From NCBI GenBank assembly GCA_016219515.1, contig JACRMU010000007.1, positions 40-64,039 of the forward strand: 64,000 bases of DNA, given 5' to 3'. Numbering within the stretch: position 1 is the first letter of the stretch; each line of letters starts with the position of its first letter. Origin of the DNA: Deltaproteobacteria bacterium (lineage in GTDB: Bacteria; Desulfobacterota; Deferrimicrobia; Deferrimicrobiales; Deferrimicrobiaceae). The notes beneath the pieces were generated by a model. The model worked only from the letters and a program-made list of their open reading frames with translations. It was not told where the DNA came from and ran no database searches. The position numbers and the translations under genes are program-made. Shown in pieces: positions 2,553 through 28,681 of the stretch.

Positions 2553-2560
2553 GGGCCCCG

Positions 2561-9445: not shown

Positions 9446-10555
9446 ATGCCGAGCATCTATATCGACGGGATGTTCTTCCGTTCCTCCGGGATCGGGCGGT
9501 GTTACGAAAATCTGCTGAGGGCGCTGGACGGGTCGGAAGACGTGTCCCGGGTCTGCACGATCGTCCCAAGGGCCCGGGAGGCGGAATTCCGGCGATCGTT
9601 TTCCTCCGGCAAGATCGACGCCCGGTTCGTCGGCTTCTCCTACCTCGGATTGTCCGATTTTCTGCGAAAGGGATTCCTCATCCGCGCCTTCCGTCCCGCT
9701 CCGGAACTTTTCTACTTTCCCAACATCAACGTGCCGTTTTTCTGGAACGGCAGGACCGTTTCCCAGCTGCACGATCTCATTCCGCTCACCCGTTTTACGG
9801 ATTGGCCGCGGAGGCACAGGCTTGCATTCCGCCACCTGGCGGGGCGTGCGCTTCGCAAGTCGAGAATGACGGTTTGCGTATCGGAGTTCGCAAAGGGACA
9901 GGTGATGGAGGAATACCGGGTCTCCGGAGACCGGTTGCGGGTGATCCATAACTGGATCGATGACGGATTTCTGCAGGCGGCCGCACGGGCGGGTTCGGAG
10001 AAGCCCCTCGTGGAGGGGGATTATCTCCTCTACGTGGGGAACCGGTCGTCGCACAAGAACCTCAAGACGCTGATGGATGCGTTCCGGCTCCTCTCGCCCG
10101 TTTTCCCCGGCCTGAAGGTTGTCGTCGTCGGCGCCAGGATGCGGCCGCAGGACGATGTGGATGCGGCGGCTTCCGATCCGGGATTGGCGGGACGCGTTGT
10201 GCAGGTCCCCCGGGCATTGGATGAGCGGCTCCGGAATTACTACGCCTTTGCCCGCGCGTTCGCGTTCCCGACGTTCGTCGAGGGGTTCGGAATTCCCCCT
10301 CTCGAGGCGCTTGCGTTCGGCGTTCCTGCCGTCTGCTCGGACATCCCCGCGATCCGGGAGATCTGCGGAGACGCGGTCCGTTACGCGGATCCCTTCGACC
10401 CGGGTTCCTTCGCCCGCGAGATCCATTCCGCGCTCTCGGACCCGGAATCGAACGCGGTCTTCAGGGAAAAAGGCCTGAACCGACTTCTGCTGTACCGCAG
10501 GGAAAGGGCGCTCTCCCGGTTCCTGGAACTTTTCCGGAGCTGCCTGGAGAGCTGA
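9446..10555 (+). CDS. Glycosyltransferase family 4
   Basis: ...YLLYVGNRSSHKNL...EGFGIPPLEALAFGVPAVCSD... Confidence 0.85.
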   Translation: MPSIYIDGMFFRSSGIGRCYENLLRALDGSEDVSRVCTIVPRAREAEFRRSFSSGKIDARFVGFSYLGLSDFLRKGFLIRAFRPAPELFYFPNINVPFFWNGRTVSQLHDLIPLTRFTDWPRRHRLAFRHLAGRALRKSRMTVCVSEFAKGQVMEEYRVSGDRLRVIHNWIDDGFLQAAARAGSEKPLVEGDYLLYVGNRSSHKNLKTLMDAFRLLSPVFPGLKVVVVGARMRPQDDVDAAASDPGLAGRVVQVPRALDERLRNYYAFARAFAFPTFVEGFGIPPLEALAFGVPAVCSDIPAIREICGDAVRYADPFDPGSFAREIHSALSDPESNAVFREKGLNRLLLYRRERALSRFLELFRSCLES

Positions 10556-13073: not shown

Positions 13074-13110
13074 TGCGCCCAAGGCGCATTCCGGAAAATG
13101 CGCAAAGCGC
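13074..13110. promoter_or_regulatory. Operator-like inverted repeats in the divergent intergenic region (TGCGCC-CAA-GGCGCA, TTCCGGAA, TGCGCA-AA-GCGCC)
   Basis: Perfect 6-bp inverted repeat with a 3-bp spacer at 13074..13088, an 8-bp palindrome at 13089..13096, and a second TGCGC/GCGC half-site pair at 13099..13110. The sites lie between a minus-strand TlpA gene and a plus-strand NapH-like gene. Confidence 0.3.
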
Positions 13111-13190
13111 CGGCCTGCTCCGCCGCGTACAAAGCCGCTTCCTCAGAATGTCCTGCGGGCGACGTTTCCCGGTGATAATCTATACGGGTA

Positions 13191-14735
13191 ATGTCCATGC
13201 GCACTTTTCGACGCATTTCCCAGTGGGCGGTATTCCTGGTCTTCGTGTTCCTTTTCCTGAACACGGAATACAAGGACAACGACGTTCTCCCGTATGCGGT
13301 CAACGTATTCCTGCGGCTGGACCCCCTCGTTGCGGCGGCTGCGGCGATTTCCGGGAGGGCCCTCATAAGTCTCGTGTGGCCCGCGCTGGTCGTCGCGGGG
13401 CTCACGATCCTCCTGGGCCGCTTCTTCTGCGGATGGGCATGCCCGATGGGTTCCCTGCTGGACGCCGTCGATGCGACTCTCTTCGCGCGCTGGAGGCGAA
13501 AGTTCGCGGTTCCCCCTTCCTGGCGGCGATGGAAATATCTGATCCTCGTTTTTCTCGCGGGATCGGCGCTGTTCACGCTCCAGTGGGTTTTCCTCTTCGA
13601 TCCGATCAGCATCCTCATCCGCTCGTTCGCGGTTTCCCTGTTCCCGGTCCTGAACCGGATCGTGCACGACACGTTCGGGGCCCTCTATGGGACCCATGCC
13701 GGCCCGGTGACCCGTCTCTCCGAGCCGGCATACGATTTTCTCCGGGCCCACTTCCTCGCCTTCGAGCAGCCGATGTTCCGGGCATCGGCTCCGGTCGGAC
13801 TTCTCTTTCTCGCGATCCTGGCGGCCGAGTACTATCAGAAACGGTTCTGGTGCAGGAACCTCTGTCCCCTGGGGGCGTTCCTGGCGCTTCTCGGAAGGTT
13901 CGGCCTTTTCCGGAGACGGGTGATGGAGGATGGCTGCACACGGTGCGACCTGTGCGAGAAGAGCTGCCGGATGGGGGCCATCCGCGATGACGTCGAGACG
14001 TTCCACGGCGAATGCGTCGGATGCATGGATTGCCAGGCAATCTGCCCGGAAGAGGTCATCCGGTTCTCCGGCAAGGAGGGGCGGCGGGAGGCCGCCGTGG
14101 ACCTTTCCCGCAGGGGCGTCCTCGCGTCGGCGGCCCTCGGCGTGGCGACCGTGCCGTTCTTCCGCGTGGAGGCGCATCGGAAAGCCGCCGATCCGGGCGT
14201 GATCCGGCCCCCGGGCGCGCTGGCCGAGGACGAGTTCCTCTCCCGCTGCACGCGGTGCGGCGAGTGCATGAGGGTGTGCATCGCGAACGGGCTCCAGCCC
14301 ACGTGGTTCGAGGCGGGGCTGGAGGGGATGTGGAGCCCCGTCCTGGTTCCACGGATCGGGTATTGCGAATACAACTGCACGCTCTGCGGGCAGGTGTGCC
14401 CCACCGGCGCGATCCGCCGGCTCCCCCTCCCGGAAAAGAAAAAGGTGAAGATCGGCCTTGCGGAGATCGACCGGAGCCGCTGCCTGCCGTGGAAGGGGCA
14501 GTCCGACTGCATCGTCTGCGAAGAGCACTGCCCGACGGCGAACAAGGCCATCCTCATGAAGGAGGAAAAGGGGATGACGATCGCCGGCGAGGCGAGGGTC
14601 TTCAAAAGACCCTACGTCGACGAGGAGCTGTGCATCGGGTGCGGGATCTGCGAGACGAAGTGCCCGTTGACCGACCGTGGCGCCGTCTACGTGACCTCCC
14701 GGGGCGAGTCGAGGGCGGTAGCCAGGGTATCGTGA
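13191..14735 (+). CDS. NapH/MauN-family membrane-bound polyferredoxin (4Fe-4S)
   Basis: N-terminal TM helices with FFCGWACPMGSL and CRNLCPLGAF motifs, followed by about six CxxCxxCxxxCP ferredoxin motifs. Confidence 0.8.
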   Translation: MSMRTFRRISQWAVFLVFVFLFLNTEYKDNDVLPYAVNVFLRLDPLVAAAAAISGRALISLVWPALVVAGLTILLGRFFCGWACPMGSLLDAVDATLFARWRRKFAVPPSWRRWKYLILVFLAGSALFTLQWVFLFDPISILIRSFAVSLFPVLNRIVHDTFGALYGTHAGPVTRLSEPAYDFLRAHFLAFEQPMFRASAPVGLLFLAILAAEYYQKRFWCRNLCPLGAFLALLGRFGLFRRRVMEDGCTRCDLCEKSCRMGAIRDDVETFHGECVGCMDCQAICPEEVIRFSGKEGRREAAVDLSRRGVLASAALGVATVPFFRVEAHRKAADPGVIRPPGALAEDEFLSRCTRCGECMRVCIANGLQPTWFEAGLEGMWSPVLVPRIGYCEYNCTLCGQVCPTGAIRRLPLPEKKKVKIGLAEIDRSRCLPWKGQSDCIVCEEHCPTANKAILMKEEKGMTIAGEARVFKRPYVDEELCIGCGICETKCPLTDRGAVYVTSRGESRAVARVS

Positions 14736-14831
14736 ACGTGCACAAGATCCTGTTGCAACCAACGCGGATCGTTCCGGCGGATTTTCCGTGAGGATCGCCC
14801 GCACCATTATTCTTTCCGGACGGGAGGAAAA

Positions 14832-15797
14832 GTGACAAGGGCCAGGTGTCTTTGGAGCCGGAGGAAGTTCCTGCGGCTGATGGGAGGGGCGGCGGGAATG
14901 CTGGCCGCCGGGGGCGCCGGATTGACCGAGGGAGGCCACGCCGTGCCGGAAGCCGCCGCCGCGCCGGGAGCCGGCGTGAAGGTGGCGGTGGCGTCGGGAG
15001 CGGCCCCTTCGGAAAACGTCGCCAGGGCGGTGGCGGCGCTCGGCGGCATCAAGGCGTTCGTCTCCCGCGGAGACGTGGTCGTCCTCAAGCCGAACATCGG
15101 GTGGGACAGGACGCCGGAACAGGCGGCAAACACGAACCCGGAGGTGGTCGTCGCCCTGGCGGAGATGTGCCTCTCCGCGGGGGCGAAGGAAGTGCGCGTG
15201 TTCGACCGCACCTGCAACGACCCCAGGCGCTGCTATGTGAACAGCGGCATCCAGGCCGCCGTGGAGGCGTTCGCGAAAAAACGCGGCGCGTCCGGCGTGG
15301 TGCGGGTCTACCACGTCGAGGACCGGAAGTTCCGGAGGACCGCGATCCCGGGCGCGTTCGCCTTGAAGGAGTGGGACCTCTACAGGGATGCGCTGGAAGC
15401 GGACAAGATCGTCAACGTCCCCGTGGCCAAGCACCATACGCTGGCCACCGCGACCCTCGGCTTGAAGAACATGATGGGAATCATGGGCGGGAACCGGGGA
15501 CAGATCCACTACAACCTCTCGGATTGCCTCGTGGACATCCACCGCCGCCTGCCCACGAGCCTGACGGTCATCGACGCAACGCGCGTGCTGCTCCGCAACG
15601 GCCCGTCGGGGGGGAACCTCGCCGACGTCCGCGCGCTGGGCAAGGTGTTCGCCTCCCCGGACGTCGTGGCGGCCGACGTCGTCGCGGCGGAAAGGGTCTT
15701 CGGATGGAAGCCGAGCGACGTGGCGCACATCCGGAAGGCGCTCGACGCGAAACTCGGCGTCTCTTCTCCCGCGCAGATCCGCGTGGTCGAGGCGTGA
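14832..15797 (+). CDS. Tat-signal DUF362-domain protein
   Basis: Twin-arginine motif SRRKFLRLMGGAAGMLAAGGAG. Contains the ...VVLKPNIGW... core typical of DUF362. Confidence 0.55.
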   Translation: MTRARCLWSRRKFLRLMGGAAGMLAAGGAGLTEGGHAVPEAAAAPGAGVKVAVASGAAPSENVARAVAALGGIKAFVSRGDVVVLKPNIGWDRTPEQAANTNPEVVVALAEMCLSAGAKEVRVFDRTCNDPRRCYVNSGIQAAVEAFAKKRGASGVVRVYHVEDRKFRRTAIPGAFALKEWDLYRDALEADKIVNVPVAKHHTLATATLGLKNMMGIMGGNRGQIHYNLSDCLVDIHRRLPTSLTVIDATRVLLRNGPSGGNLADVRALGKVFASPDVVAADVVAAERVFGWKPSDVAHIRKALDAKLGVSSPAQIRVVEA

Positions 15798-15833
15798 GCC
15801 TGATGTTCGAATACGCGAAGCGAAGGGGGAGAG

Positions 15834-16184
15834 ATGATCCCTAAGCGAAACCCGGAAATCGTATGGCGGCTGGAAAAGGGGATTCACGAGATGGCGTGGG
15901 ATAAGGCGCGCAAGGATGAGGACTTCGAGGATATGGGCGTCCTCACGCTCATGATCAAGGGGGCGATCCACCAGTTGAACCTGGTCGGCGCGGAAATCTG
16001 GATGCGGATCAACGGCGTCAACTCGCTGAAAAAAATCTCCGGGGACATCGCCTCCCTGTTCGGCTGGGAGAAGGAGGAGACGGAGGAAGCCGTCCTGGGG
16101 TTCCTGAAGGGGATCGAGGAGCGCGGCTGGGTGACCCTCTCCGGGAAGGGCGGCCCGGCCCCGCCGAAGTGGAAGGCGCATTGA
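15834..16184 (+). CDS. PqqD-family peptide chaperone (RiPP recognition element-like)
   Basis: ...IHQLNLVGAEIWMRINGVNSLKKISGDIASLFGWEKEETEEAVLGFLKGIEERGWV... matches the PqqD consensus (hxLNxtaaxIWxxidGxxsxxeI...dvxxFlxxLxexGlv). Confidence 0.65.
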   Translation: MIPKRNPEIVWRLEKGIHEMAWDKARKDEDFEDMGVLTLMIKGAIHQLNLVGAEIWMRINGVNSLKKISGDIASLFGWEKEETEEAVLGFLKGIEERGWVTLSGKGGPAPPKWKAH

Positions 16185-16296
16185 TGCGTTCACGTCTCTC
16201 CTCTCCGGAACTCCCGCGGGAAAAATCGGGGGCACGTCCTTCCGTCCGTGTTTTCCGGTTACAATAAAAGAACTTCACGTCAAGCAAGGAGAGCGC

Positions 16297-17208
16297 GTGG
16301 AATATTCCCTGCCGATACGCGTGCGATGGGACGTCGACTTCCAGGGGCGGTCCGGCCGCGCGAAGCGGATCGCCCGCCAGATCCGGGAGGCGTCCCCGTT
16401 GCATGTCGAGCTCCGGATCGAGGGAGGAAAGGGGATTTCCGAGCTTCCTGCGATCTTTGCCGAAATCCACAAGTGCAGCCCGCGGATCGAGACCACTGTG
16501 CCCCTCTCCCCGGCAGCCGTCGCGGTTGCGCGGAGGGGATATCCCCAAATGGATTTCCTCTGGGAGGTGAGCGCCCGCGAGCCGTTCCGAAGGCTCCTCC
16601 CCTCGGGGGCGGATGCGATCTCCTTCGTTCCCGACGAGGAGAACCTGGCGTACCTTCCCGACGTTTTGGAGGAGTTCGCGGACAGCGAAACACGGACGCT
16701 GCACCTGCCGAACGTCAACGCCGTCCGCGCGCTTGCATTGAAGGGGCACGTCCCCATCCCCATGCCCGACCGGCTCCGCGAGGCGGGGCACAGGATATCG
16801 GCGCTTCGGATCCGCCTGGAGGGCAAGAAGCTGGTCGCGCACGATTATTTCCTCTGGAGGATCCTGCGGGGCGCGTTCCCGGACGAAGTGGCGGGAAGGG
16901 TCGAGTTTTCCGGATGCCAGGCGGCCTCCGCGCTTGCGCATGTCGACTGGGAAGGGAACGTCTACCCCTGCGATTCCCTCCCCATCCGCCTGGGGAACCT
17001 CCAGGAGGCGACGTTCGAAAAGATCTGGAACGCCCCGGCGAGATCGCGGATCCACGAGGCGATCCGCTCCGTGCCGACCTCCTGCAAGCCGTGCGAACAG
17101 AGGGAGGGTTGCCTTTCCGGTTGCCGGGGGCATGCGTACGCCGCCTCCGGCACGATGGACGCTCCCGACCCCTCCTGCCCGGAGAAGCCCGTCCCCGCGT
17201 CGAAGTAA
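16297..17208 (+). CDS. SPASM-domain protein lacking the canonical radical-SAM CX3CX2C motif (pseudo-rSAM-like maturase or partner)
   Basis: C-terminal ...SGCQAASALAHVDWEGNVYPCDSLPIRLGNLQEATFEKIWNAPARSRIHEAIRSVPTSCKPCEQREGCLSGCRGHAY... is a textbook SPASM/twitch region. The N-terminal 200 aa has a single Cys and no CxxxCxxC. Confidence 0.6.
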   Translation: MEYSLPIRVRWDVDFQGRSGRAKRIARQIREASPLHVELRIEGGKGISELPAIFAEIHKCSPRIETTVPLSPAAVAVARRGYPQMDFLWEVSAREPFRRLLPSGADAISFVPDEENLAYLPDVLEEFADSETRTLHLPNVNAVRALALKGHVPIPMPDRLREAGHRISALRIRLEGKKLVAHDYFLWRILRGAFPDEVAGRVEFSGCQAASALAHVDWEGNVYPCDSLPIRLGNLQEATFEKIWNAPARSRIHEAIRSVPTSCKPCEQREGCLSGCRGHAYAASGTMDAPDPSCPEKPVPASK

Positions 17209-17248
17209 ATCCTCCCCCCGGCAAAAGGGATATGTTGTAATTTGCGGG

Positions 17249-17821
17249 ATGGCCTTCGACGACGATTCCAGGCTCGCCCGCAGGGCCCAGAAGGGGGATC
17301 GCCAGGCGTTCGAGGCGCTCCTCGATAGGTACGAGCGTCCCATCTATTCCTTCATCTACCATTTTTTCCAGGACCGCGCGCTCTGCGAGGACCTGACGCA
17401 GGAGACCTTCCTCCGCGCGTACCGGTTCATCGGGTCGTTCCGTCCCGGTGAGAAGATGTCCACCTGGCTTTACTCGATTGCCAAGAACCTCTGCATCGAC
17501 GAACTGCGGCGCAGGAAGAAGGGTACGGCCGTGGACATCGACGCGGTCGATCCCGATCTCCTCGTCGCGGAGGGGAGGGACGGCGGCAATCCCCTGGTTG
17601 CCGCCATCGATCAAGAGCAGGGAGAGATCCTCCGCAAGCTCCTCCTTCGGGTCCCGGAGAAGTACCGTATGAGCATCATCCTGTTTTATTTCAATGAGCT
17701 GAGCTACGAAGAGATTTCCGCGATCATGGAAATATCCTTAAGCAACACGAAGATACTCCTGTTCCGCGGGAAAAGGATGCTGGTGGAACTGTATCGGAAG
17801 GAAACCGGCGGGAAAGTGTAA
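17249..17821 (+). CDS. RNA polymerase sigma-70 factor, ECF subfamily
   Basis: Region 2 (...ALLDRYERPIYSFIYHFFQDRALCEDLTQETFLRAYR...) and region 4 (...ELSYEEISAIMEISLSNTKILLFRGKRML...). Confidence 0.85.
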   Translation: MAFDDDSRLARRAQKGDRQAFEALLDRYERPIYSFIYHFFQDRALCEDLTQETFLRAYRFIGSFRPGEKMSTWLYSIAKNLCIDELRRRKKGTAVDIDAVDPDLLVAEGRDGGNPLVAAIDQEQGEILRKLLLRVPEKYRMSIILFYFNELSYEEISAIMEISLSNTKILLFRGKRMLVELYRKETGGKV

Positions 17822-17879: not shown

Positions 17880-18653
17880 GTGAACGGTTGCCGTAAATAC
17901 GAGGATCTTCTTGCCAGGTACATCCACGGCCAGGTTCTCCTCCAGGAGGTAGAGGACCTGGAAGGACACCTGGCCATGTGCGCGGCCTGCGAGAAGCTTT
18001 ACCGGGAAATCGCGGACATCGATCGAGTCCTGCGTGAGATGCCGGATAAGTCCGTCGAACCTCCGGCCCATCTCCGATCGAAAATCGTTGCGAACCTGCA
18101 GGAGGAGGAAAGAACCCCGGCCTGGCGGCCCTGGGGGAAATGGGCGGCTGCGATCGGGGCGGCCGCCGCGTGCCTCCTTGCGGGCGTCGTGCTTTACCGG
18201 GGAGCCGTGACGAAGGAATCCCGCGTGGCGCCCCTTCCTTCCGCGGCGCCTCCCGCCGCGCAGTCGCCGCAGGAAACCGCTCCCGGGGCTTCGGCGAAAG
18301 CCCCCGCTGCGCGGCCCCCGTTGTCTTCCGCCACGGCGCCGGCTCCTTCTCCCCACGCCGTGGAACTCCGGATCGTTCGCGAGGTAAAGATCTATTTCTA
18401 CCATCCGGCCGCGTCGAAGGTCGCCGTGACCGGCGATTTCAACGGCTGGAATCCCGAAGGCGTTCTCCTCACGGCATCCGGGGAGCCGGGGGTATGGAAG
18501 ACGACCTTGCGGCTCCATCCGGGGGCCTATTCCTACATCTTCATCGTGGACGGAAACCTCCTCGTTCCCGACCCCAATGCCCCCGACCAGATGCCGGACG
18601 GATACGGGGGGACGAATTCCATCCTGCTGGTCAAGGGAGGAAACTCCGTGTGA
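17880..18653 (+). CDS. Anti-sigma factor (zf-HC2) with a C-terminal CBM48/AMPK-beta-like glycogen-binding-type domain
   Basis: N-terminal HLAMCAACEKLYREI zinc-finger anti-sigma motif. One TM helix. C-terminal VKIYFYHPAASKVAVTGDFNGWNPEGVLLTASGEPGVWKTTLRLHPGAYSYIFIVDG is E-set/CBM48-like. Confidence 0.7.
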   Translation: MNGCRKYEDLLARYIHGQVLLQEVEDLEGHLAMCAACEKLYREIADIDRVLREMPDKSVEPPAHLRSKIVANLQEEERTPAWRPWGKWAAAIGAAAACLLAGVVLYRGAVTKESRVAPLPSAAPPAAQSPQETAPGASAKAPAARPPLSSATAPAPSPHAVELRIVREVKIYFYHPAASKVAVTGDFNGWNPEGVLLTASGEPGVWKTTLRLHPGAYSYIFIVDGNLLVPDPNAPDQMPDGYGGTNSILLVKGGNSV

Positions 18654-19249
18654 GGTTCCGGGCGGTCTTCGCATCGGCGCTCGCGGCGGCGCTTTGTTTC
18701 CTTCCGCTCCCGGCGTTCGCGCAGCACGCGGCCATCGAGGATCTCTGCCGGCTCCACGGGATCGAGCGGCAGGAGAACATCGTTCGGATCGGCGAGGCGT
18801 ACGCGGCGGCCCGCAAGGCCGGCATCGGCGAGGAGGAGCTCCTTCCTTTCCTCGAGGAGATCCTGAAGCACAAGCTGGACTGCCCGCAGATGGTGCGGGT
18901 CCTCGCCGCCGCCACGAAGCTGCGGGAGGAGGGGCTTCCCTATTTCGTCGTGTTCAGCAAGGTGAGGGAGGGAGTCGCCAAGGAGGCGGCGCCGGCGCTG
19001 GTGGTCGAAGCGGCGGAATCGAAACTTAAGACTTTATCCGAATCGCGCGATGTCTTAAAATCCCTCGAGGCAAACGGGTACAGGATTCTCGATTTTCAGA
19101 ATGCGGCAGTCATCGTTTCTTCCTATATAGAGAAAGGATATACATCGGGCGAAATCGTTTCACAAATCCGGAAGAAGGGGATCCAGGGAGCGGGATTTGC
19201 CGCGCTGTCCGGGGTGGTGGAGAGAAAAGTGAAGCGGAAAGAACGCTGA
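18650..19249 (+). CDS. Secreted hypothetical protein
   Basis: GTG overlaps the anti-sigma stop (GTGTGA). Signal peptide VRFRAVFASALAAALCFLPLPAFAQ. No recognisable domain. Confidence 0.45.
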   Translation: MRFRAVFASALAAALCFLPLPAFAQHAAIEDLCRLHGIERQENIVRIGEAYAAARKAGIGEEELLPFLEEILKHKLDCPQMVRVLAAATKLREEGLPYFVVFSKVREGVAKEAAPALVVEAAESKLKTLSESRDVLKSLEANGYRILDFQNAAVIVSSYIEKGYTSGEIVSQIRKKGIQGAGFAALSGVVERKVKRKER

Positions 19250-19251
19250 CC

Positions 19252-22200
19252 TTGCGCAGATTCGCCATCTGGGCGGTGTTCCTGGCCGTCGCCGGGGGGT
19301 GGCTCCTGTTTTCCTCCAGCGGACAGGCCGGGATCGGGGTCGTCGGAAGTCCCCACGATTTTTCCACCACGACGCCGGGGCCCTGGACCCGGGACAATTC
19401 CGCATACACCTCGGGGGGGATCGCCCCCTCGGGCGTCTGTTCCGCCTGCCATGTGCCGCATTCCGCGAAATACGCCCCCCTGTGGCCGAGGGACCTTTCC
19501 ACCTACGACAACGCGCTCCTGCTGGATGGAAGCGGCGGGGCGACCGGGAAGCCGAATTACCGGAGGCCGATGACCAATCAGTGCTTCGACTGCCATGACT
19601 ACCACCAGACGACCACGGAACGGATCGACGACCTGCCGAACTTCTCGAAGTTCTCCAGCGTGAGCTCCGGCCACAAGCCGCAGAACATCGCGTTCGGTTA
19701 CACCACACCCACGACCGGAAAGGACCTGAACTCCACGATGAAGGAGGACATCCCGGCGGGATCGGTGTCCGGGTATTATGAAAACACCCCGCCCTACCAG
19801 ACCCAGCCCACGAGAAATTACGGCGCGACCGACAACGTCCGCCGACCCCTCGACAACACCACCTTGAGCCGGACCGGAGGCCATTACTTCAAGTCGGGGG
19901 ACCCCAACGCGAGCGGCGGGATCTATAAGGGGGACAAGCTGCCGTGCAGCGACTGCCACGAGCCGCACATGTGGGACGGCAACGGCGCCTGGCAGGCGTT
20001 CATCCGGAGGAGCTGGCCCTCCGGGAGCACGGTCGCCACCCGCCTTCAATCCTGGACGGGGCGGGCGAGCACCTACATGGCGAACGCGCCGACCCCGACC
20101 GGCGCGACCCGCAGCGACCTCGACAGCAGAACGATCTGCGAAGCGTGCCACGGGTCGGCGGACAGCGGCAATCCGCCGGTCACCTACCCCCAGATCAACG
20201 ACTCCACGTCCCCGAACCCGTATACGAACAATCAGCAGATCGTCGCCGCGCCGTCGACGGTTTCGGAACACTTCAACTCGAGGTCGCAGGCGGCCTGCGT
20301 TTCCTGCCACAACCACAACAACATCGGCGCGAGCTGCTCCCAGTGCCACGGCTTTCCGCCGAGTTCCACCGCTACCATCAAGTACCCGACGAACTTCACG
20401 CGCGTGCCCAATCCGGACAACGACGCGGACACCTCGACGCGGGACTCCCACGCCATGCATTACGGGGCGAAATCGGGGGAGACCCGGAATGCCGCCGCCG
20501 GGTATGTCTATGCCTTCGATTGCAGCACCTGCCATTACGGCTCGGCGCTCGGGACCGATTCGGCCATGGGGCACCATCAGGACAACCTGGTCTCGGTTGT
20601 CATCCAGGGGATCTATACGAAAGCGCCGAACGGCCCGGCCGGAGCGTACGACAACACGAACTATTACAACCAGGGCCCGGGGTTCCCGTTCCCGCCTACT
20701 CGGACGGGCCTGCTGGACAATACGAACGTTTCGCCCAACGGATGGGGGGCCGGGTCCCGCTACGGCGGCAACACCTGCCGCAATGTCTACTGCCACAGCG
20801 CGGGTCGGGCGCTCGCATCGATGACGCTGAACAACGACAACGACTTCCGGTCCCCCGTGTGGGACAACGGCCCCAGGCGCTGCAACGACTGCCACGGAAA
20901 AGGGACGGACAACACCGCCGTCAACTGGGGAATGCCCAGCTATGCGAACGGGGGAGCCGGACTCGACAACGCGAACTCCCATTCCGAACACGTGGTCGAC
21001 AACAGGATCGAGTGCTCCGTGTGCCATGCGGGGACGGTCACGGGCACGGGGGCGAGCCGCGCCATCGTGAGCACGGTGCCGACCCTGCACGTGAACCGGG
21101 TGCGCAACGTGCAGTTCGGCGGGGGGGCGACGGGCACCTACGACAACGCGACGAAACGGTGCAGCGTCGCCAGCTGCCACGGAGCCGGCAATCCCCAATG
21201 GGGCGGCACACTGGTCGGCTGCAGGGCGTGCCATTTGTCGAACAGCCCGGACACCGATTTCTACCTGAGCGGGACCGACAACCTCTATTCCGGCTCGGCG
21301 GTGACCAACATCGACAACACGGAATGGACATGGTCGGGGCATGGCCGGCCCACCGCGTCGGGGGCCTACGAGAAGAGCGGCTACCCCGCCGCGAACTTCG
21401 ACGGGGCCGCCGGCTCCGGCGACTCCTGCTACTATTGCCATAATTACTATGTGGCGCACGACAACTCCGTGAATCCGTTCCGGCTCAAGGACCAGACGGG
21501 GGCCGCCTCCTACCTGGCGACGCTGGGCTGGAACGCGACCTGCATGGTCTGCCATTTCCACTCGTCGACGCCGACGGCGAACCAGCCCCCGGGGTACCGG
21601 CCCGACAACACGTACACGCTGGTGAGGGCCGCATCCTCCTTCGTGGACAACGCGCATTACGGCACGAAGCATACTTCGACCAACGGCGGGAAGTTCTGCT
21701 GGGACTGCCACGATCCCCACGGCGACCGGACCCAGACCAACGGGAACAACATCTTCATGATCCACGGCGGTTCCGCGTCCCGCGGCGGGACCGCGGTCGG
21801 CTCGCTCCTGCGCCAGAGCGACAATGTTTTCGGCATCCGGGGATCCGCGGGCCAGCTCACGACCAACTACCCGGTCTTCACCGACAACGCTTCCGGCGGC
21901 AATTACGTCGACAACAACACGCCGAAACGGGGGGTCTGCCAGGTCTGCCACACGCAGCCGACGACCGGACACTACCGGTCGGACTATTACGACGGCCACA
22001 ATCTAACGGCGCGCTGCACCTCGTGCCATCCCCACAACGCGGGGTTCGCTCCCAGCGGGGGGAGAAACATCGAGCAGTTCATGGACAACGTGACGGGCAG
22101 CCCGTCGACGAACTACGAGGACCGCTCGCGGCACCCGCTGACCCTTTCGGGAAAGACGTACCCCGCGGAGGTGAACTGCCTGGGCTGCCACGGGGTCTCC

Positions 22201-23076
22201 GGCACCACGAGCGTTTCCAACGAGTGCCAGACGTGCCACTACGAATACCGCGCTGCGGACAACACGGCGCATCCGAACTCCGTGATGGCGTGGGCGACCC
22301 CGGCCGCGCCTGCGACGCTTTATGCCGCGTACCCCTCGGGCTCGATCAAGGACACGTCGCAGGGGGATGTCTGGTGCCTGCTGTGCCACGGGGTATCGAG
22401 CGGCCCGCAGCTGAACGGCCGCACGCCGCCGAACGTTCTCTCCGGCGGGCAGGTCTGGAGCGGGAGCGGCGCCTCGGGGCACGGGGCGGCTGCAAGCCTG
22501 TCGGGGGGGACTGCGGGGCCGCCGGCGTACCATTGCGGCGACTGCCACTACTCGACGGCGACCCGGACGGGCAGCTCGGAATCGCGGGACCAGCTGGCGG
22601 GAGGGTTCCACGGGAGCGTGAACCGGAAGCTGGTCCGGAACGACAACGCCTCGATCCAGGAATATCCGCACCCGGCGTCGGCAGACACGCGGTACGACAA
22701 CACGGACGAGCGTTCGACGCAGATGGATTCCTGGTGTGCGACCCAGTGCCACAGGAATTCGACCGACGGCATCCCCAGGAACGACAACGTGGTGGCCCAC
22801 ACCTGGTCGATGAAGGCCGGCGGGGTCCGTTCCGGGACCTTGAGCCACCCGACGAACATGGCGCCCGTGCCCGACGCCGCGCGGTTCCGGAACCCGCCGG
22901 CGCTTCCGCTGTCGGAGTACCTGGGGGGCGGGGCATCGCTGCCGGGTTCCGGGAACGAGGTCTGCGTCACCTGCCACGAACCGCACGCGGCAAGCAACAC
23001 GCAGTCGGACAAGCAGATGCTGCGGATGGAGTGGAACGACAACAACTCCACGCTGTGCAAGCAGTGCCACCTATGA
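19252..23076 (+). CDS. Giant multiheme c-type cytochrome (about 21 CxxCH plus 3 atypical CX3-4CH; 1274 aa)
   Basis: Signal peptide. CxxCH sites include CSACH, CFDCH, CSDCH, CEACH, CVSCH, CSQCH, CSTCH, CNDCH, CSVCH, CRACH, CYYCH, CMVCH, CWDCH, CQVCH, CTSCH, CLGCH, CQTCH, CLLCH, CGDCH, CVTCH and CKQCH. Atypical sites are CRNVYCH, CSVASCH and CATQCH. TTG start per the ORF track. Confidence 0.9.
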   Translation: MRRFAIWAVFLAVAGGWLLFSSSGQAGIGVVGSPHDFSTTTPGPWTRDNSAYTSGGIAPSGVCSACHVPHSAKYAPLWPRDLSTYDNALLLDGSGGATGKPNYRRPMTNQCFDCHDYHQTTTERIDDLPNFSKFSSVSSGHKPQNIAFGYTTPTTGKDLNSTMKEDIPAGSVSGYYENTPPYQTQPTRNYGATDNVRRPLDNTTLSRTGGHYFKSGDPNASGGIYKGDKLPCSDCHEPHMWDGNGAWQAFIRRSWPSGSTVATRLQSWTGRASTYMANAPTPTGATRSDLDSRTICEACHGSADSGNPPVTYPQINDSTSPNPYTNNQQIVAAPSTVSEHFNSRSQAACVSCHNHNNIGASCSQCHGFPPSSTATIKYPTNFTRVPNPDNDADTSTRDSHAMHYGAKSGETRNAAAGYVYAFDCSTCHYGSALGTDSAMGHHQDNLVSVVIQGIYTKAPNGPAGAYDNTNYYNQGPGFPFPPTRTGLLDNTNVSPNGWGAGSRYGGNTCRNVYCHSAGRALASMTLNNDNDFRSPVWDNGPRRCNDCHGKGTDNTAVNWGMPSYANGGAGLDNANSHSEHVVDNRIECSVCHAGTVTGTGASRAIVSTVPTLHVNRVRNVQFGGGATGTYDNATKRCSVASCHGAGNPQWGGTLVGCRACHLSNSPDTDFYLSGTDNLYSGSAVTNIDNTEWTWSGHGRPTASGAYEKSGYPAANFDGAAGSGDSCYYCHNYYVAHDNSVNPFRLKDQTGAASYLATLGWNATCMVCHFHSSTPTANQPPGYRPDNTYTLVRAASSFVDNAHYGTKHTSTNGGKFCWDCHDPHGDRTQTNGNNIFMIHGGSASRGGTAVGSLLRQSDNVFGIRGSAGQLTTNYPVFTDNASGGNYVDNNTPKRGVCQVCHTQPTTGHYRSDYYDGHNLTARCTSCHPHNAGFAPSGGRNIEQFMDNVTGSPSTNYEDRSRHPLTLSGKTYPAEVNCLGCHGVSGTTSVSNECQTCHYEYRAADNTAHPNSVMAWATPAAPATLYAAYPSGSIKDTSQGDVWCLLCHGVSSGPQLNGRTPPNVLSGGQVWSGSGASGHGAAASLSGGTAGPPAYHCGDCHYSTATRTGSSESRDQLAGGFHGSVNRKLVRNDNASIQEYPHPASADTRYDNTDERSTQMDSWCATQCHRNSTDGIPRNDNVVAHTWSMKAGGVRSGTLSHPTNMAPVPDAARFRNPPALPLSEYLGGGASLPGSGNEVCVTCHEPHAASNTQSDKQMLRMEWNDNNSTLCKQCHL

Positions 23077-24002
23077 GGCGGATTGCCGTCGTCTGCGCGG
23101 CCCTTTGCCTGTCGATCGCCGCGGAATCCCGCGGCGCAGCGGTGGAGGTTCAGGCGTTTTTCGGGAAGGAGGCCCTTCCGTTCAGTTGGGTTTCGGGGGT
23201 GTTCCGCGACGGGAACGACGTTTGGGTCGGCACGAAGAACGGTACGAGGATCTACAGCCTGGCCGGAAAGGCATGGAGAACGCCGCCGCCGGGTTTCACG
23301 GGGAACGCCGTGACGGGCCTTGCACGGTTCGGAGGGTCCCTGTACGTGGCGACCGAGGCGGGGCTGAACATCGGCGGCCCGGCCGGCTGGAAAGCCATGA
23401 ACCGCATCGCGAACGCCGTGGCGTCCGACGGAGACCTGGCCGCTTCGGAAAACACGTTGTGGATGGCCGCCCGCACGATGACCGGGGGACTCCTTCAGTT
23501 CGACGGATCCGGCTGGAAACTCCTTTCCCGGGGGGAAGGAACGGGGGTGATGAGCAACATTACCCGCCTTTCCGTCCGGAACGGGGAGCTGTGGGCCGGG
23601 ACCACGAACAACGGGATTTACCTTTTGAAATCGGGAAAATGGACGGTCATCGGCCCGGAGGACGGACTTCCCGGACTCTGGATCACCTCGCTTGCGGGAA
23701 CCGGCGACGGGATGTACGCGGGTTCTCCCGACGGCCTGGGGTTTTACGACGGGAGCCGGTGGAGGGTCTACCGCGTGGCGGACGGCCTCCCCAGCAACAA
23801 AGTGAGCGCGCTCAAAGTATATGAAAACAGGGTCGTTATCGGGACGTTCGACCGGGGGATTTCGATCTTCGACGGGAGGCGCTTCCGGAACATCGGGCGC
23901 GCGGAAGGGCTCTCCGACGACCGCGTGGAATCGATCGAGGTCGTCGGGGACGAGATCTGGGTGGGCACGATCAACGGGCTGTCGCTCGTCCGCATCCCCT
24001 GA
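23073..24002 (+). CDS. Secreted beta-propeller protein with two-component-regulator-propeller (Reg_prop)-like repeats
   Basis: ATG overlaps the cytochrome stop (ATGA). Signal peptide. Six repeats of the type ...WVGTKNGTRIYS..., ...LWAGTTNNGIYLLKSGKW..., ...IWVGTINGLSLV... Confidence 0.7.
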   Translation: MRRIAVVCAALCLSIAAESRGAAVEVQAFFGKEALPFSWVSGVFRDGNDVWVGTKNGTRIYSLAGKAWRTPPPGFTGNAVTGLARFGGSLYVATEAGLNIGGPAGWKAMNRIANAVASDGDLAASENTLWMAARTMTGGLLQFDGSGWKLLSRGEGTGVMSNITRLSVRNGELWAGTTNNGIYLLKSGKWTVIGPEDGLPGLWITSLAGTGDGMYAGSPDGLGFYDGSRWRVYRVADGLPSNKVSALKVYENRVVIGTFDRGISIFDGRRFRNIGRAEGLSDDRVESIEVVGDEIWVGTINGLSLVRIP

Positions 24003-24045
24003 AGCGGTTCCGGGGACGAGCGGCACGGGCGAGGGAGGAAAGAGC

Positions 24046-27000
24046 GTGGCGTACCGTCCGAGGCGCTTGAGCCGGTCCTGGTTCTTCGCCCTTGCCGTGG
24101 GGATCCTGCTCGCGGCGTGGAGCGCGGGGCTGGCGGACCACTCGAAGATGGACCCCAACGCCAGCTGCTATGCGTGCCACACCCTCAAGACGTCCGAGCT
24201 CCTGTCGGCGACCAAGAGCATCCGCACTTCCAAGCCGAAGATGACCAAGCTCGCGGACAACACGACGTGGACGGCGGGGATGCCTCTTTCGTGCGATTTC
24301 TGCCACCAGTCGGCGACCGACGTCCCTTCGCTGGTAAAGAGCACGAAAACCTCGCGCCACCCCGTGGACACGATCGGGAACGAGACGGACCCGACCCGGG
24401 AGATTTCCTGCAACGACTGCCACAACGCCTACTGGGATGCGACGGTCCCCGCCAACGACAACCACGAGGTGACCCCCAAGACGCTCCTGACGCAGGACAA
24501 CACGGACGGCTACCCGGACCACAAGGGGCTGGGATCGGACAACCAGTACGCGCACAACCTGCGTTCGAACCCTCCCCATCTGTCGAAGGGATACACCGGG
24601 AACATGAGTTTTTCCTCGACGACCCCCCGGATTTCCGACGGGACGTTCTGGTCGTCGTCGCTCGACGGAAGCAACCTGGTCTGCTTCGTCTGCCACGGGG
24701 GGTCGTCGTATCAGCCCCCGTTCCGCGGCGCGTCGGGGCGGTCGCAATACAACGTGATGTCGGATTACTCGGCGTCGGGTACGGCGGCGGGGCACAAGAT
24801 CAACGCGAACTTCGGCTCCAGCGGGGCCCTGGCGCAGGGCTCGAAGCTTCCGTGCTACGACTGCCACGCTTCCCATGGGAGCGCGAGCCGGCGCCTGATC
24901 CTGGACGGATATTTCGCGAGCGACAACGGGATGCGGAACATCGAGGGGACGTCGAGCCTCGCGGTGAACACGTTCACGAGCAGTTCCCCCGGCGCGACGG
25001 GAGACATCGCGGTGTGCGCGGGATGCCACAACACGGGGCTTGCGGCGACGGCGTTCAGCGCGACGGGGAAGGTGGAGAAGCTCAACCCGATGGACCCGTT
25101 CGTGAGCAGGGCGACCAGCCATACGGTGGTCGGGTCGTGGTCCTCGCCGTCGGCGACGAGGGGATGCCTGGGAACGTTTTCGGGTTGCCACGCCAGCCCG
25201 CACAATCCGATCGGGGAGAGCCTGGGAGGCCTTGGCTGCTCGACCTGCCACTCGACGATCTACACGGCGATGCAATCGTCCACGGGGTACCACCACGCGA
25301 TTCTTTCGGACAACGCGACGGCCCCGTACCCGACGAACGCGACTCCGGGCTCCGCGCCTGCGGACCGCACGTGCCGGATCTGCCACGTGGACCACGATTT
25401 CTTCAGCACCCAGACGGGCTCGAACCACCTCCGCGCGCGGAACCTGCGGCAGAGCATCTCGGTGCAGCCCAACGACAACATCTCCGCGGCGAGGCCCCTG
25501 AACACGGACTACGACAACACGCTCGGGGGGGTGTGCACCTCCTGCCACGCCAACGTGCAGACCAAGAGCGCGACGAACCTCCGGTCGGACAACGTGTGGC
25601 AGACCTCCGTGGTCAGCCAGGCGCTGTACGGGGTCGGCGCGCACAACTATGCGGTCACCTCTCCCTACATCAAGAGCCATTTCTCGTCCGACAACTCGGA
25701 CGCGACGAGCATCTTCCAGGCGAACTGCACGAAATGCCACAACGACACGATGCAGAAGAACTTCCAGGACAACAACGTTTCGTATCCGAACCAGTTCGGC
25801 CTGCACGACTCCGGGGCGGGAGGCGGCAGCGTCGTCGACAAGCTGCTGGGCCCGCTGGGGGCGACGAGCGTCGCTGAGGTCGCTGGGGAGAACTTCTGCT
25901 ACCGCTGCCACAGCCACAGCACGGACACGCTGCTGAACGGCCCCTCCAAGACGCAGGACGGGTACGACTGGTACGGCGGCAGCGTCAAGGCGATGACGCA
26001 GGCGTCGGAGAGCGTCTTCGGGGACTTCCAGAAGACCTCGCGGCACCCGGTCAAGACGGCGGACCAGAAAAGCGGGACCGCGGTGGTGTCCTGCGGGAAC
26101 TGCCACAACGCGCATGTCGTCGGCAGGACCGCGGACAACGCGGCGGTATCGAATCCCGACAATACCTATGCGATCGCCGTGTACACCACCATGGCGGGGC
26201 GGCTCAACTTCTGCCTGGCGTGCCACGACGGGAATCCCCCGGACAACACGGTGTCGGCGACCCGGTTCGTCCCCGCCCGCGTGCGGGTGGACAACGCCGT
26301 CATGAACAAGTCCACGTACGCGGCCAGGTCGCACTGGACCAGCGGCCAGGGTCAGATGTTCCTGTCCCTGGTGTGCACGAATTGCCATGACCGGCACGGC
26401 GGTTCGTTCGGAAAGCTTTTGGACAACGGCGTGAAATACCACCGCGGGCCGCAGTGGACCCCCCCCGCGTGCAATACCTGCCACGGATTCACCTCCCCTT
26501 CGGCGCCCACGGGGAACAACAACACGGAATGCTTCCGCTGCCACACGTACCAGGGGACCGGATACCCGGCGATCGAATCGGACCGGACGGCGGGGGACAA
26601 CGGCTACTTCGCCGCGCCGGGGACATCCGTGCGGTTCTCTCTCCGGTATGCCGGGAAGGCGGTGTACGAGGGGGCCTACTCGCCCCACAACAACACCGTG
26701 AAGACCTTTTCCGGGTTCGACAACGTGTCGCGCACGGTGAGCGACTGCAGGAATTGCCACGACGTCCACGGGACGGCGAACCCGTACGCGCAGCTCAAGG
26801 GGACGTACCGCTCGGGGAATTACGGGCTCTGCTTCCAGTGCCACGGGAAGACCGCGACCGCCACGGACAACATCTCCCGGTACTACCCGACGGCGGCCGG
26901 CGGCGACAACACGGACAGCGCGAGCGCGACGAACGCGGGCCACAACATCAAGACGGCGGGGGGGTACCTGGCGCAGTACACCTCGCTGCCGTGCTACGAC

Positions 27001-28680
27001 TGCCACGTGACGCACGGAAGCAAGAACTCGAACACGCAGCTCAAGAGCGACCAGACGGAGCGCGGCTGGAGCGGCCTGGGCGACACCAAGTACGGGAGCA
27101 CGCCTTCGGACAACGCGGCGGACAACAACAGCCGGAGGTTCTGTTTCGGGTGCCACGTGGCGTCGGACGGTTCCGGCACGGCGACGGTGGAGAACCTGTC
27201 GCAGGCGGGCGCGAACCGCCTGAAGCTGCCTTCGACCTACGGGATCGAGGAGCACAAGGGGGCGAGCGCGCAGGGGTGCCACCGGTGCCACTACGGGAAG
27301 AACTACAACGACAACACGTACGGCCCGCACTACCCGGCGACCGGGTTGTGCGACACGTGCCACGAGAGCCAGGGGACGAAGTCCGCGGGAGTGCCGACGT
27401 ACAACGGGGCGCACCTGAGGCACGTGGACAACACGACGTACCGGTTCGCCTGCAAGGAGTGCCACAGCTGGACGAAGGGATCGGGCCAGGCGGTGCACAA
27501 GAACGACAACACCGCCTCCGCGATCCACGCGGAGGTGGCGTTCGACAACCAGGGCTCCTCGTCGTGGGACAACATCCTGTACGCGGTGTCCACGACGTAC
27601 AAGTACCGCTCGCTGTACGCGAACCCCTATGGCGCAAGCGTGGCGTCCCCCGCGTACTCGGGAGGCACGGACAACGGAACGGACGGAAAGCAGGCGCTCC
27701 TGAAATGGCGGAACGGCAACTGCAGCAACGTCTGGTGCCACAGCACGGCGTACGCGGACAACGTGGCGAGGACCGTCGCGTGGCAGTCGGGCGTGCTCCC
27801 TTCCGGCTGCACCGGCTGCCACGGCGGCGGGAAGGCGGTCGCCGCCGCGAGCCGGATGGGGGCGTCCAACAACGGTTCTCCGGCGCACCTCGCGCACATC
27901 GACTCGAACCTCAGGTGCTACAAGTGCCATTACGGGACGATCACCGACAACACGCAGGACACGGTGATCAACGTCTACGACAACCATGTCAACGGCGTGA
28001 AAAACGTGCGCTTCCCGTCCGAGGTCGGCGGGACGTGGGACAACACGAACAAGACCTGCTCGGCGACTTACTGCCACGGCACGCCGGCGACGCTGCCCAA
28101 GTGGGACAACCTGTCGACGGTTTCCGGCTGCGGCGTGTGCCACCAGAACCAGGGGGCGGGGGCGACCGGGAGCTACGCGGGCCCGCACCATCCCCACACG
28201 ATCAGCAGCAAGCTCCGGATCGCCTGCGAGACGTGCCACGCGGTGAACGCGGCCGCGCATTCCAACACGATCCACGCGGGCGGCCCCGACAACGCGGCGT
28301 CGGGGAAGACGGCGGAAGTCCTGTACACCGATAACGCGCAAGGCCGGACGTACTCCGGCGTCGCGTTCCTGGCGAAGAACCTTTGGGTCAATCCGTTCGA
28401 CAACAACGCGGCGCTCACGCCCGTCTATGCGGGAGGTGCCTCCTCCGTGGGCAACGACGCCGTCAACGCCGCCATCCACTGGACGCAGGGGACCTGCAGC
28501 CAGGTGTGGTGCCACTCCAACGCGAAGCCCCTGGGCTGGAAGGGGGTGGCGGGGAACAACGCCTTCCGCTCCCCGCCGTGGACCTTTACCGCCTGCAATT
28601 ACTGCCACAATCCCCGTCCCACGGACGTGAACTGCACTCCGTGCCACCGCGGCGTCGGGACCGCCGCCGCCATGGCGGGC
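24046..28680 (+). CDS. Giant multiheme c-type cytochrome, N-terminal segment (about 29 CxxCH plus atypical sites); continues in another frame
   Basis: GTG at 24046 preceded by GGGAGGAAAGAGC (SD). Signal-like N-terminus with a dense run of CxxCH. The reading frame stays open to 28986, but the sequence after about 28680 is R/S/T-rich nonsense while the +2 frame carries on the cytochrome motifs, implying a frameshift near 28660-28690. Confidence 0.75.
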
Positions 28681-28681
28681 G

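Follow-up and report, generated by a model that had tools for sequence, protein, structure and literature searches.

What does a PqqD-family peptide chaperone do next to a SPASM-domain protein that carries no radical S-adenosylmethionine (rSAM) cluster motif? The question is posed by a 64-kb stretch of contig JACRMU010000007.1 from a Deferrimicrobiaceae metagenome-assembled genome (MAG), hereafter the window, in which an earlier reading made from the sequence alone (the sequence-only reading) had pointed out such a pair between a NapH-like polyferredoxin and an extracytoplasmic function (ECF) sigma factor. The locus is a recurrent rSAM-less variant of GeoRSP, a cassette that is catalogued but uncharacterised, and most of what is surprising about it can be accounted for by gene loss and by a family that has already been curated. 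The two proteins are, in the reading that we consider likely, non-catalytic members of a GeoRSP-type cassette whose rSAM gene was recently deleted, and they probably still constitute an rSAM-independent sub-module. The location given for the pair holds, but its two-gene content does not, as three genes, not two, lie between the polyferredoxin and sigma factor genes: a DUF362 gene starting at 14832 had been overlooked, so that the PqqD gene is not directly beside the polyferredoxin gene. The core of the locus lies on the + strand and reads as follows.

13191..14735, + strand: membrane polyferredoxin (polyFd), a NapH-like N-terminal part fused to a NapG-like C-terminal part, from Fer4 family matches; spared by the deletions described below
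14832..15797, + strand: DUF362 protein of 321 amino acids (aa), predicted to be exported by the twin-arginine translocation (Tat) pathway; PF04015 161.7 bits, cut-off 24
15834..16184, + strand: PqqD-family peptide chaperone of 116 aa, of the type of the recognition element (RRE) of ribosomally synthesized and post-translationally modified peptides (RiPPs); PF05402 34.8 bits, cut-off 23.4, E 2e-8
16297..17208, + strand: SPASM-only pseudo-rSAM protein of 303 aa; PF13186 and TIGR04085 above cut-off
17249..17821, + strand: ECF sigma factor, from Sigma70_r2/r4_2 matches

The score of the 116-aa protein bears out the suggestion that it is PqqD-like. The intergenic gaps across the locus measure 36-163 nt, including a spacer of 112 nt between PqqD and SPASM-only, and the window cassette corresponds to the NCBI MAG proteins MBI5341852-55 (PqqD, MBI5341854.1; SPASM-only, MBI5341855.1).

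The SPASM-only protein is a pseudoenzyme, with a full rSAM/SPASM fold by structure prediction and no cysteines for the SAM cluster. Its only Pfam match is PF13186 (43.7 bits, cut-off 21.5), and TIGR04085 matches with 47.6 bits (cut-off 27). The cysteines lie at positions 60, 207, 225, 263, 266, 272, 276, and 294, of which the last seven complete the SPASM pattern CX17C...CX2CX5CX3C...C (C207, G220-X4-C225, C263, C266, C272, C276, C294), in agreement with the sequence-only reading; the 17 residues separating C207 from C225 slightly exceed the classical 9-15 of the motif CX9-15GX4C...CX2CX5CX3C...C. Judged by this pattern, the seven cysteines would potentially suffice for two putative auxiliary [4Fe-4S] clusters. 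Residues 1-200 hold a single cysteine, C60, which is not conserved across the family, and, as had been claimed, CX3CX2C is missing, with no match to PF04055 at E ≤ 0.1. An alternative start or frame that would supply CX3CX2C, a check proposed at the outset, is ruled out: no in-frame start exists upstream of 16297 before the preceding stop, no cysteine motif occurs in the 112-nt spacer, and a six-frame scan of the 64 kb for stop-to-stop open reading frames (ORFs) of at least 150 aa finds CX3CX2C only in polyFd (13191-14735). Because it lacks both the SAM-cluster cysteines and a GGE-type motif, the SPASM-only protein is unable to start radical chemistry itself.

Such proteins are not a peculiarity of the window. 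A profile search of 1.84 billion representative proteins yielded 350 clusters at E ≤ 1e-10, and among 119 full-length representatives within the top 150 clusters, 117 lack CX3CX2C and 116 keep CX2CX5CX3C; the SPASM protein without the radical-SAM motif therefore forms a well-populated family. The homologues of the window protein belong to MAGs assigned to "Deltaproteobacteria" or to Candidatus Deferrimicrobiaceae. At the site of the cluster loop, the family has a short Gly/Arg loop and an Arg/Lys-rich helix with the near-invariant motif RWDVDF...GRxKRIARQIR. The AlphaFold2 (AF2) model, built with 26 homologues, has a predicted local distance difference test (pLDDT) score of 81.8 and a predicted template-modelling (pTM) score of 0.80; in it, strands and helices alternate over residues 8-193, as in a degenerate (beta/alpha)6 rSAM core, the SPASM region comes next, and residues 262-303 have low confidence in this cofactor-free model. 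The best PDB matches of the model in Foldseek are SuiB, PqqE, SkfB, and anSME, over about 310-330 columns with TM-scores of 0.50-0.56. Since a PDB sequence search finds the SPASM domain alone, and a profile-profile comparison (hhalign) with the neighbouring rSAM family aligns the C-terminal 131 columns only (98% probability), the pseudo-rSAM designation of the N-terminal part rests on the predicted fold.

The family to which the pair belongs has already been curated. The best NCBIfam match of the SPASM-only protein is TIGR04304, "GeoRSP system SPASM domain protein" (98.6 bits, cut-off 300), aligned end to end from protein residues 5-294 to model positions 4-292 of 293, and that of the PqqD protein is TIGR04302, the GeoRSP PqqD family (46.3 bits, cut-off 100). 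Both scores fall under the curated cut-offs, as do those of the cassette of cultured Desulfuromonas versatilis, which carries the same PqqD-rSAM-SPASM-only core (SPASM-only, 87 bits on TIGR04304; PqqD, 98.6 bits on TIGR04302). Given that this cassette fails them although NCBI names its rSAM protein GeoRSP, the TIGR04302 and TIGR04304 cut-offs are uninformative at this distance and were dropped as a membership test. The pairing is thus not of an unrecognised kind, as had been implied, since TIGR04304 and TIGR04302 proteins normally flank a TIGR04303 enzyme; the pseudo-rSAM suggestion stands insofar as a full-length rSAM/SPASM fold without the cluster cysteines is predicted.

Comparison across genomes, likewise proposed with the original observation, places the rSAM gene between PqqD and SPASM-only. 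The order YedE, ArsP-type permease, PqqD, rSAM/SPASM, and SPASM-only recurs in 9 genome-derived and about 24 metagenome loci (related loci bear L numbers here), and the intervening rSAM proteins of these relatives have the CX3CX2C and GTGEP motifs, score 403 bits on TIGR04303 (cut-off 400), and are labelled GeoRSP rSAM by NCBI and JGI. The full cluster is present in the nearest relative of the window, a single Logan contig that is treated here as loci L060 and L066. With the genes that are missing in the window in parentheses, the full cluster in this lineage runs (DUF4198-like), polyFd, (AAA, OpuAC-like, ResB-like), DUF362, (NosD-like, beta-helix, substrate-binding protein [SBP], TPR, YedE, ArsP), PqqD, (rSAM), SPASM-only. 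The window is collinear with this cassette in blocks of 92-95% DNA identity, the polyFd genes of the window and L066 are 92% identical in DNA, and the PqqD protein shares 95% aa identity with its counterpart in the intact cassette of L060. The trees of DUF362, PqqD, and SPASM-only are congruent.

Measured against L060/L066, the window shows at least five separate deletions, through which twelve genes have been lost, including that for rSAM. The others named are those for the DUF4198-like protein, the AAA ATPase, the OpuAC-like protein, the ResB-like beta-helix protein, the NosD-like protein, a second beta-helix protein, the SBP, the TPR protein, the YedE selenium/sulfur transporter, and the ArsP-type permease; polyFd, DUF362, PqqD, and SPASM-only were spared. 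Fragments of four of the deleted genes remain.

13090..13144, + strand: relic, 55 nt of the deleted 377-aa gene (DUF4198/CarboxypepD_reg-like); blastn to L066 4584-4638, 89% identity
14778..14816, + strand: relic, 39 nt, the 3' end of the deleted AAA-ATPase gene; blastn to L066 7485-7523, 92% identity
15799..15823, + strand: relic, about 25 nt from the 3' end of the ArsP_1-type permease gene, otherwise deleted; supported by blastn blocks and a junction alignment
16184..16208, + strand: relic, the first 25 nt of the deleted GeoRSP rSAM/SPASM gene; alignment to the PqqD end and rSAM start of L060

The OpuAC-like and ResB-like genes that follow the AAA gene are wholly gone. A 6.9-kb deletion, with its junction at a GGCG(G)TGAACC microhomology, removed the NosD-like, beta-helix, SBP, TPR, YedE, and ArsP genes, and a 997-bp deletion with its junction at a CCGG|TC microhomology removed the rSAM gene, whose relic now opens a meaningless 27-codon ORF (16184-16267). 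Because relics remain, the direction of change is deletion and not insertion. Neither tblastn of the twelve missing genes, which gave no matches elsewhere in the 64 kb, nor tblastn of the GeoRSP rSAM, which gave none beyond the C-terminus of SPASM-only, recovers a displaced copy in the window. The locus hence descends from an intact GeoRSP cassette, and GeoRSP radical chemistry is not possible in cis. The deletions are recent, at a synonymous divergence (dS) of about 0.1-0.2, and this is an unusually rapid gene-by-gene erosion of one cluster. Genes have been gained as well as lost since the split from L066, as the window has an extra GT1-family glycosyltransferase gene (9446-10555), a paralogue of the next gene with about 67% DNA identity.

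The sequence-only reading had found no obvious Cys-rich precursor ORF nearby, and this is confirmed: the spacers of 36-163 nt hold no plausible precursor, and such small ORFs as they contain are relics of the deletions without conservation in L001, which rules out a hidden precursor there. With neither a precursor gene nor a maturase, the locus is not a RiPP cluster.

The reduced form is not confined to the window. DUF362, PqqD, and SPASM-only are directly adjacent in about a dozen contigs (the window, L001, L009, L011-L014, L017, L019, L022, L023, and L065). In L001, the gene order is that of the window (Trx, polyFd, DUF362, PqqD, SPASM-only), with polyFd kept as well, but its junctions differ at the 377-aa, AAA/ResB, and rSAM sites, so its reduction is independent and convergent. 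In neighbour-joining trees, the reduced loci are polyphyletic and fall into three or more separate clades, every one of which has intact cassettes as its sister group; together with the differing junctions of L001 and the window, this rules out a single origin. DUF362, PqqD, and SPASM-only have therefore been retained convergently across the reduced loci. They also remain under purifying selection as strong as in lineages that contain the rSAM. Between the window and L060, the ratio of non-synonymous to synonymous divergence (dN/dS) is 0.18 for DUF362, 0.21 for PqqD, and 0.26 for SPASM-only, with 0.12-0.32 for neighbouring genes. The median dN/dS of SPASM-only in its N-terminal part and SPASM domain is 0.22 and 0.27, respectively, over 25 rSAM-less pairs, versus 0.26 and 0.24 over 12 rSAM-containing pairs, and values within the old rSAM-less clade are 0.17-0.29. 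Relaxed selection after rSAM loss was considered and leaves no sign in dN/dS, though one or two cysteine ligands are gone in the old clade. Because DUF362, PqqD, and SPASM-only are co-retained in every reduced locus and are as constrained there as in intact cassettes, they probably make up a sub-module that is independent of the rSAM.

A clue to what such a sub-module might act on comes from the DUF362 protein, which carries an SRRKFL twin-arginine motif and four invariant cysteines (C113, C128, C134, C232), conserved in 14 loci. Its AF2 model (pLDDT 79) has as top Foldseek matches the LarA-family racemases 5huq, 6c1w, 8ezh, and 9eid, with TM-scores of only 0.37-0.49; DUF362 and DUF2088, the N-terminal domain of LarA, share Pfam clan CL0471 (PMC11770544). 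The protein is accordingly described here as a predicted exported LarA-like protein. In the proposed mechanism, the cytoplasmic PqqD would bind part of the peptide chain of a client, for which the pseudo-rSAM protein, if it bears Fe-S clusters, might act ahead of export as a scaffold for docking, redox reactions, or cluster donation. Speculatively, the best candidate for the client would be the DUF362 pre-protein or its twin-arginine leader.

How the genes are transcribed bears on whether the two proteins work together. In intact cassettes, PqqD is translationally coupled to the rSAM gene via overlapping TGATG, and in reduced loci it stands directly behind DUF362. SPASM-only is preceded by features of its own.

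16227-16244: weak terminator-like hairpin, just upstream of the -10-like box
16257..16265, + strand: extended -10-like box, GGTTACAAT, 31 nt 5' of the SPASM-only start codon

Of 22 loci compared, 16 carry an extended -10 box of the type GGTTAYAAT (G[GT]TANAAT) at -37 to -41 relative to the SPASM-only start codon, and a seventeenth carries it at -48 (17/22); both intact and reduced cassettes are represented, and the background is 0.059 per kb. The box stands about 31-35 nt 5' of the start codon at the equivalent position in L001, L005, L006, L008-L016, L018, L019, L023, and L065. Between rSAM and SPASM-only, insertions of toxin-antitoxin genes (PIN with a small partner, followed downstream by HepT) or of other DNA are found in L002 (9144-9837), L003 (3747-4440), L010 (7653-9355), and L004 (11660-12358); L004 also has a further SPASM-only copy, of 232 aa, that is truncated at the N-terminus. 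As the box is conserved, and the toxin-antitoxin insertions in L002 and L010 left it in place, SPASM-only probably starts its own transcription unit, one that, to judge from the gene arrangement, would continue into the sigma factor and cytochrome genes. A scan of the 64 kb for RNA elements gave no match to any Rfam family at its gathering score.

Downstream of the cassette and the sigma factor gene, the window continues with the following genes.

17880-18653: anti-sigma gene, with a periplasmic domain of the CBM48/AMPK glycogen-binding type
18650-19249: 199-aa secreted protein without any family match

Together with the sigma factor gene, these two precede an island of giant multihaem cytochromes, the ORFs of which (19252-23076, 23821-28986, and 28383-32159) have 21, 29, and 9 CXXCH motifs plus 2-3 CX4CH; smaller cytochrome ORFs (336-1472, 2087-3763, and 41562-43109) have 7, 8, and 10 CXXCH. 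The sigma, anti-sigma, 199-aa, and multihaem cytochrome genes trail the cassette in this lineage, and the downstream order is identical after the intact cassettes of L002, L004, L006, L015, L039, L044, L046, and L060.

Intact cassettes vary in several further respects. JGI lists fused PqqD-rSAM GeoRSP proteins, P0539 (447 aa) and P0542 (432 aa), which, given that the PqqD stop overlaps the rSAM start (TGATG), may be either real fusions or merged gene calls. A divergent subtype in L053, L055, and L057 (JABAOH/JABAOE contigs) has the ArsP-type permease followed by rSAM (52-71% identity) and SPASM-only (33% identity), with no PqqD match detectable in the short gap before rSAM. L025 (26-2475) offers a third context, in which genes for a 423-aa multihaem cytochrome and an NHL-repeat protein are found directly 5' of SPASM-only, without PqqD; only the first 50 codons of SPASM-only are on this contig, and the same MAG also has the reduced locus L019. 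The wider GeoRSP neighbourhood (L061 4529-13687 in D. versatilis, AP024355.1; L060 1699-8538; L062 2797-9690) comprises two NosD-like beta-helix proteins, an SBP, a small protein, and YedE. The SBP is of the phosphonate type, with weak similarity to selenate and tetrathionate binders, the YedE putative selenium transporter reaches the TIGR04112 cut-off, and the Desulfuromonas block additionally has a cysteine desulfurase (TIGR01977). Since the lost block consists of YedE, the tetrathionate/selenate-like SBP, NosD-like proteins, and rSAM, the catalytic half of GeoRSP is suggested to handle sulfur or selenium; no such link of GeoRSP was found in the literature searched, and a literature search likewise found nothing on GeoRSP itself or on DUF362 function.

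It should be noted that a number of points weigh against a surviving sub-module. To our knowledge, no GeoRSP component has been studied experimentally. As the deletions are recent, intactness in this genome says little alone, the dN/dS between the window and L060 also includes the branch to the intact relative, and the trees of DUF362, PqqD, and SPASM-only are without support values. In the oldest rSAM-less clade (L014, L016, L017, L018, L019), a 4-aa deletion removes the sixth SPASM cysteine and the seventh is substituted; in L011, L013, and L065, the seventh alone is lost. All seven are kept in every intact cassette and in the recent reductions (the window, L001, L009). Given the losses in the old clade, Fe-S function appears to relax once the rSAM is gone. 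PqqD and SPASM-only may be no functional pair at all, because SPASM-only probably has its own promoter and toxin-antitoxin modules can come between it and the genes 5' of it, and DUF362 is not a universal client, being absent from the Desulfuromonas cassette. Finally, the visible genome amounts to 64 kb, and a diverged or unrelated rSAM partner may sit elsewhere.

With these points in mind, the alternatives can be weighed. One of them goes further than a surviving sub-module and holds that PqqD and the pseudo-rSAM protein are an autonomous device for the maturation or proof-reading of DUF362 as a Tat-exported LarA-like metalloprotein, to which the rSAM and the selenium/sulfur transport genes would be optional and from which they have been repeatedly shed; we regard this as a tentative and somewhat doubtful extension. 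At the opposite extreme, PqqD and SPASM-only would be functionless leftovers, dispensable after the loss of the rSAM and transport genes and simply not yet hit. That at least five deletions fall within so small a dS indicates active gene-by-gene erosion, and both the loss of one or two SPASM cysteines in older rSAM-less lineages and the frameshifted copy carried by L023 fit such a course (L024, a complete chromosome considered as an example of a truncated copy, is ruled out, its gene being interrupted by a scaffold N-run). What makes leftovers rather unlikely is that the same three genes were spared in every reduced locus with independent junctions, that dN/dS in the old rSAM-less clade equals that of intact cassettes, and that the N-terminal RWDVDF...GRxKRIARQIR motif and the -10 box are still conserved. 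Nor is an artefact of assembly or binning, such as a collapsed or chimeric contig, a serious contender; the source is a MAG and the related locus L024 is broken by a scaffold gap, but two independent assemblies from different SRA runs are 100% identical over 14636-17797, which establishes the rSAM-less layout as real, the junctions lie at microhomologies with relic fragments, and the same layout is seen in about a dozen contigs, so that we give this explanation next to no weight.

Two rivals remain. The rSAM partner might be encoded elsewhere and act in trans, either from a second GeoRSP locus or as another rSAM/SPASM enzyme, for example, an AhbD/NirJ-like tetrapyrrole enzyme. MAGs are incomplete, two of them have two SPASM-only loci (WY5.bin129, L008 and L020; Mix_sand21, L019 and L025), and AhbD is the second-best NCBIfam match of the SPASM region. 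No rSAM is found within the 64 kb, however, GeoRSP-type rSAM genes in metagenome contigs are found solely between PqqD and SPASM-only, and none of the GeoRSP-rSAM clusters of the protein search is represented on the 2.04-Mb reduced-form contig L065 or the 2.32-Mb chromosome CP070783.1. Two readable rSAM accessions are far from the accession range of the window, a weak test given that most clusters carry no accession. Action in trans is thus unlikely, and we rate it as quite improbable. Still less probable, to the point of being very improbable, is the suggestion carried over from the sequence-only reading that PqqD and the pseudo-rSAM protein act as an autonomous system in the maturation of the neighbouring multihaem cytochromes or of one of their cofactors. 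Throughout this lineage, the cassette always stands before the ECF sigma, anti-sigma, 199-aa, and giant cytochrome genes with CX4CH motifs, and SPASM-only would head a transcription unit running into the cytochrome genes. This synteny is lineage-specific, as the reduced loci L011, L013, L017, and L065 and the Desulfuromonas cassette have no nearby cytochromes or sigma factor; moreover, haem attachment is periplasmic, and PqqD and SPASM-only lack signal peptides. The likely reading therefore remains that of two non-catalytic GeoRSP members left, and probably still at work, after the recent deletion of their rSAM gene.

GeoRSP is one of many rSAM/SPASM/PqqD cassettes known from comparative genomics alone, and the locus with its relatives provides a natural deletion series for it. 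Gain or loss affects the rSAM, YedE, NosD-like, and SBP genes together, as one block, and PqqD, the pseudo-rSAM protein, and DUF362 persist under selection, which splits the cluster into two functional halves and indicates that the pseudo-rSAM protein has a role of its own. GeoRSP thereby gains a link with an exported LarA-like protein and with the handling of selenium or sulfur. For annotation, the lesson is that a PqqD gene beside a SPASM protein does not imply a RiPP pathway. The remaining interest lies in the convergent, gene-by-gene reduction that spares a pseudoenzyme and a chaperone, in their continued selection, and in the selenium/sulfur and LarA-like context.

Among known systems, the LarA-family nickel-pincer-nucleotide racemases are the closest structural relatives of the window DUF362 according to its model; the window protein is shorter, Tat-exported, and endowed with four invariant cysteines, and no Lar cofactor-synthesis genes were seen. 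The SPASM-only protein resembles anSME (4k37), SuiB (5v1q), SkfB (6efn), and CteB (5wgg) in combining a partial TIM barrel with a seven-cysteine SPASM domain, but sequence similarity to them is confined to the SPASM domain, and the CX3CX2C loop is replaced. With the haloarchaeal pseudo-SAM/SPASM proteins of TIGR04347, it shares a retained SPASM domain and a degenerate radical-SAM cluster site but has no specific kinship; the match, confined to the SPASM region, amounts to 32.9 bits where the cut-off is 525, and length and genomic context differ. The arrangement of a small PqqD-type RRE protein beside an rSAM/SPASM-fold protein recalls PqqD/PqqE of pyrroloquinoline quinone and MftB/MftC of mycofactocin synthesis, PqqE (6c8v) is among the top structural matches of SPASM-only, and the MftC and PqqE models give the GeoRSP rSAM of the relatives 168 and 116 bits, respectively, far below their cut-offs. 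Unlike either, the window lacks a gene for a precursor peptide, a SAM-binding cluster, and an active maturase. GeoRSP itself (TIGR04302/TIGR04303/TIGR04304), defined by comparative genomics in Geobacter and relatives, is the closest system. The window departs from it in lacking the defining rSAM/SPASM gene along with the transporter and beta-helix genes, in two proteins that score under the curated cut-offs, as in D. versatilis, and in the Tat-exported DUF362 gene, which is part of the cluster in this lineage only. It agrees with GeoRSP in that both its PqqD and SPASM-only proteins have GeoRSP models as best matches, in that YedE, SBP, and NosD-like genes flank both the intact cassettes of this lineage and that of D. 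versatilis, and in that its locus shares 92-95% DNA identity with a cassette in which the middle gene scores above the TIGR04303 cut-off.

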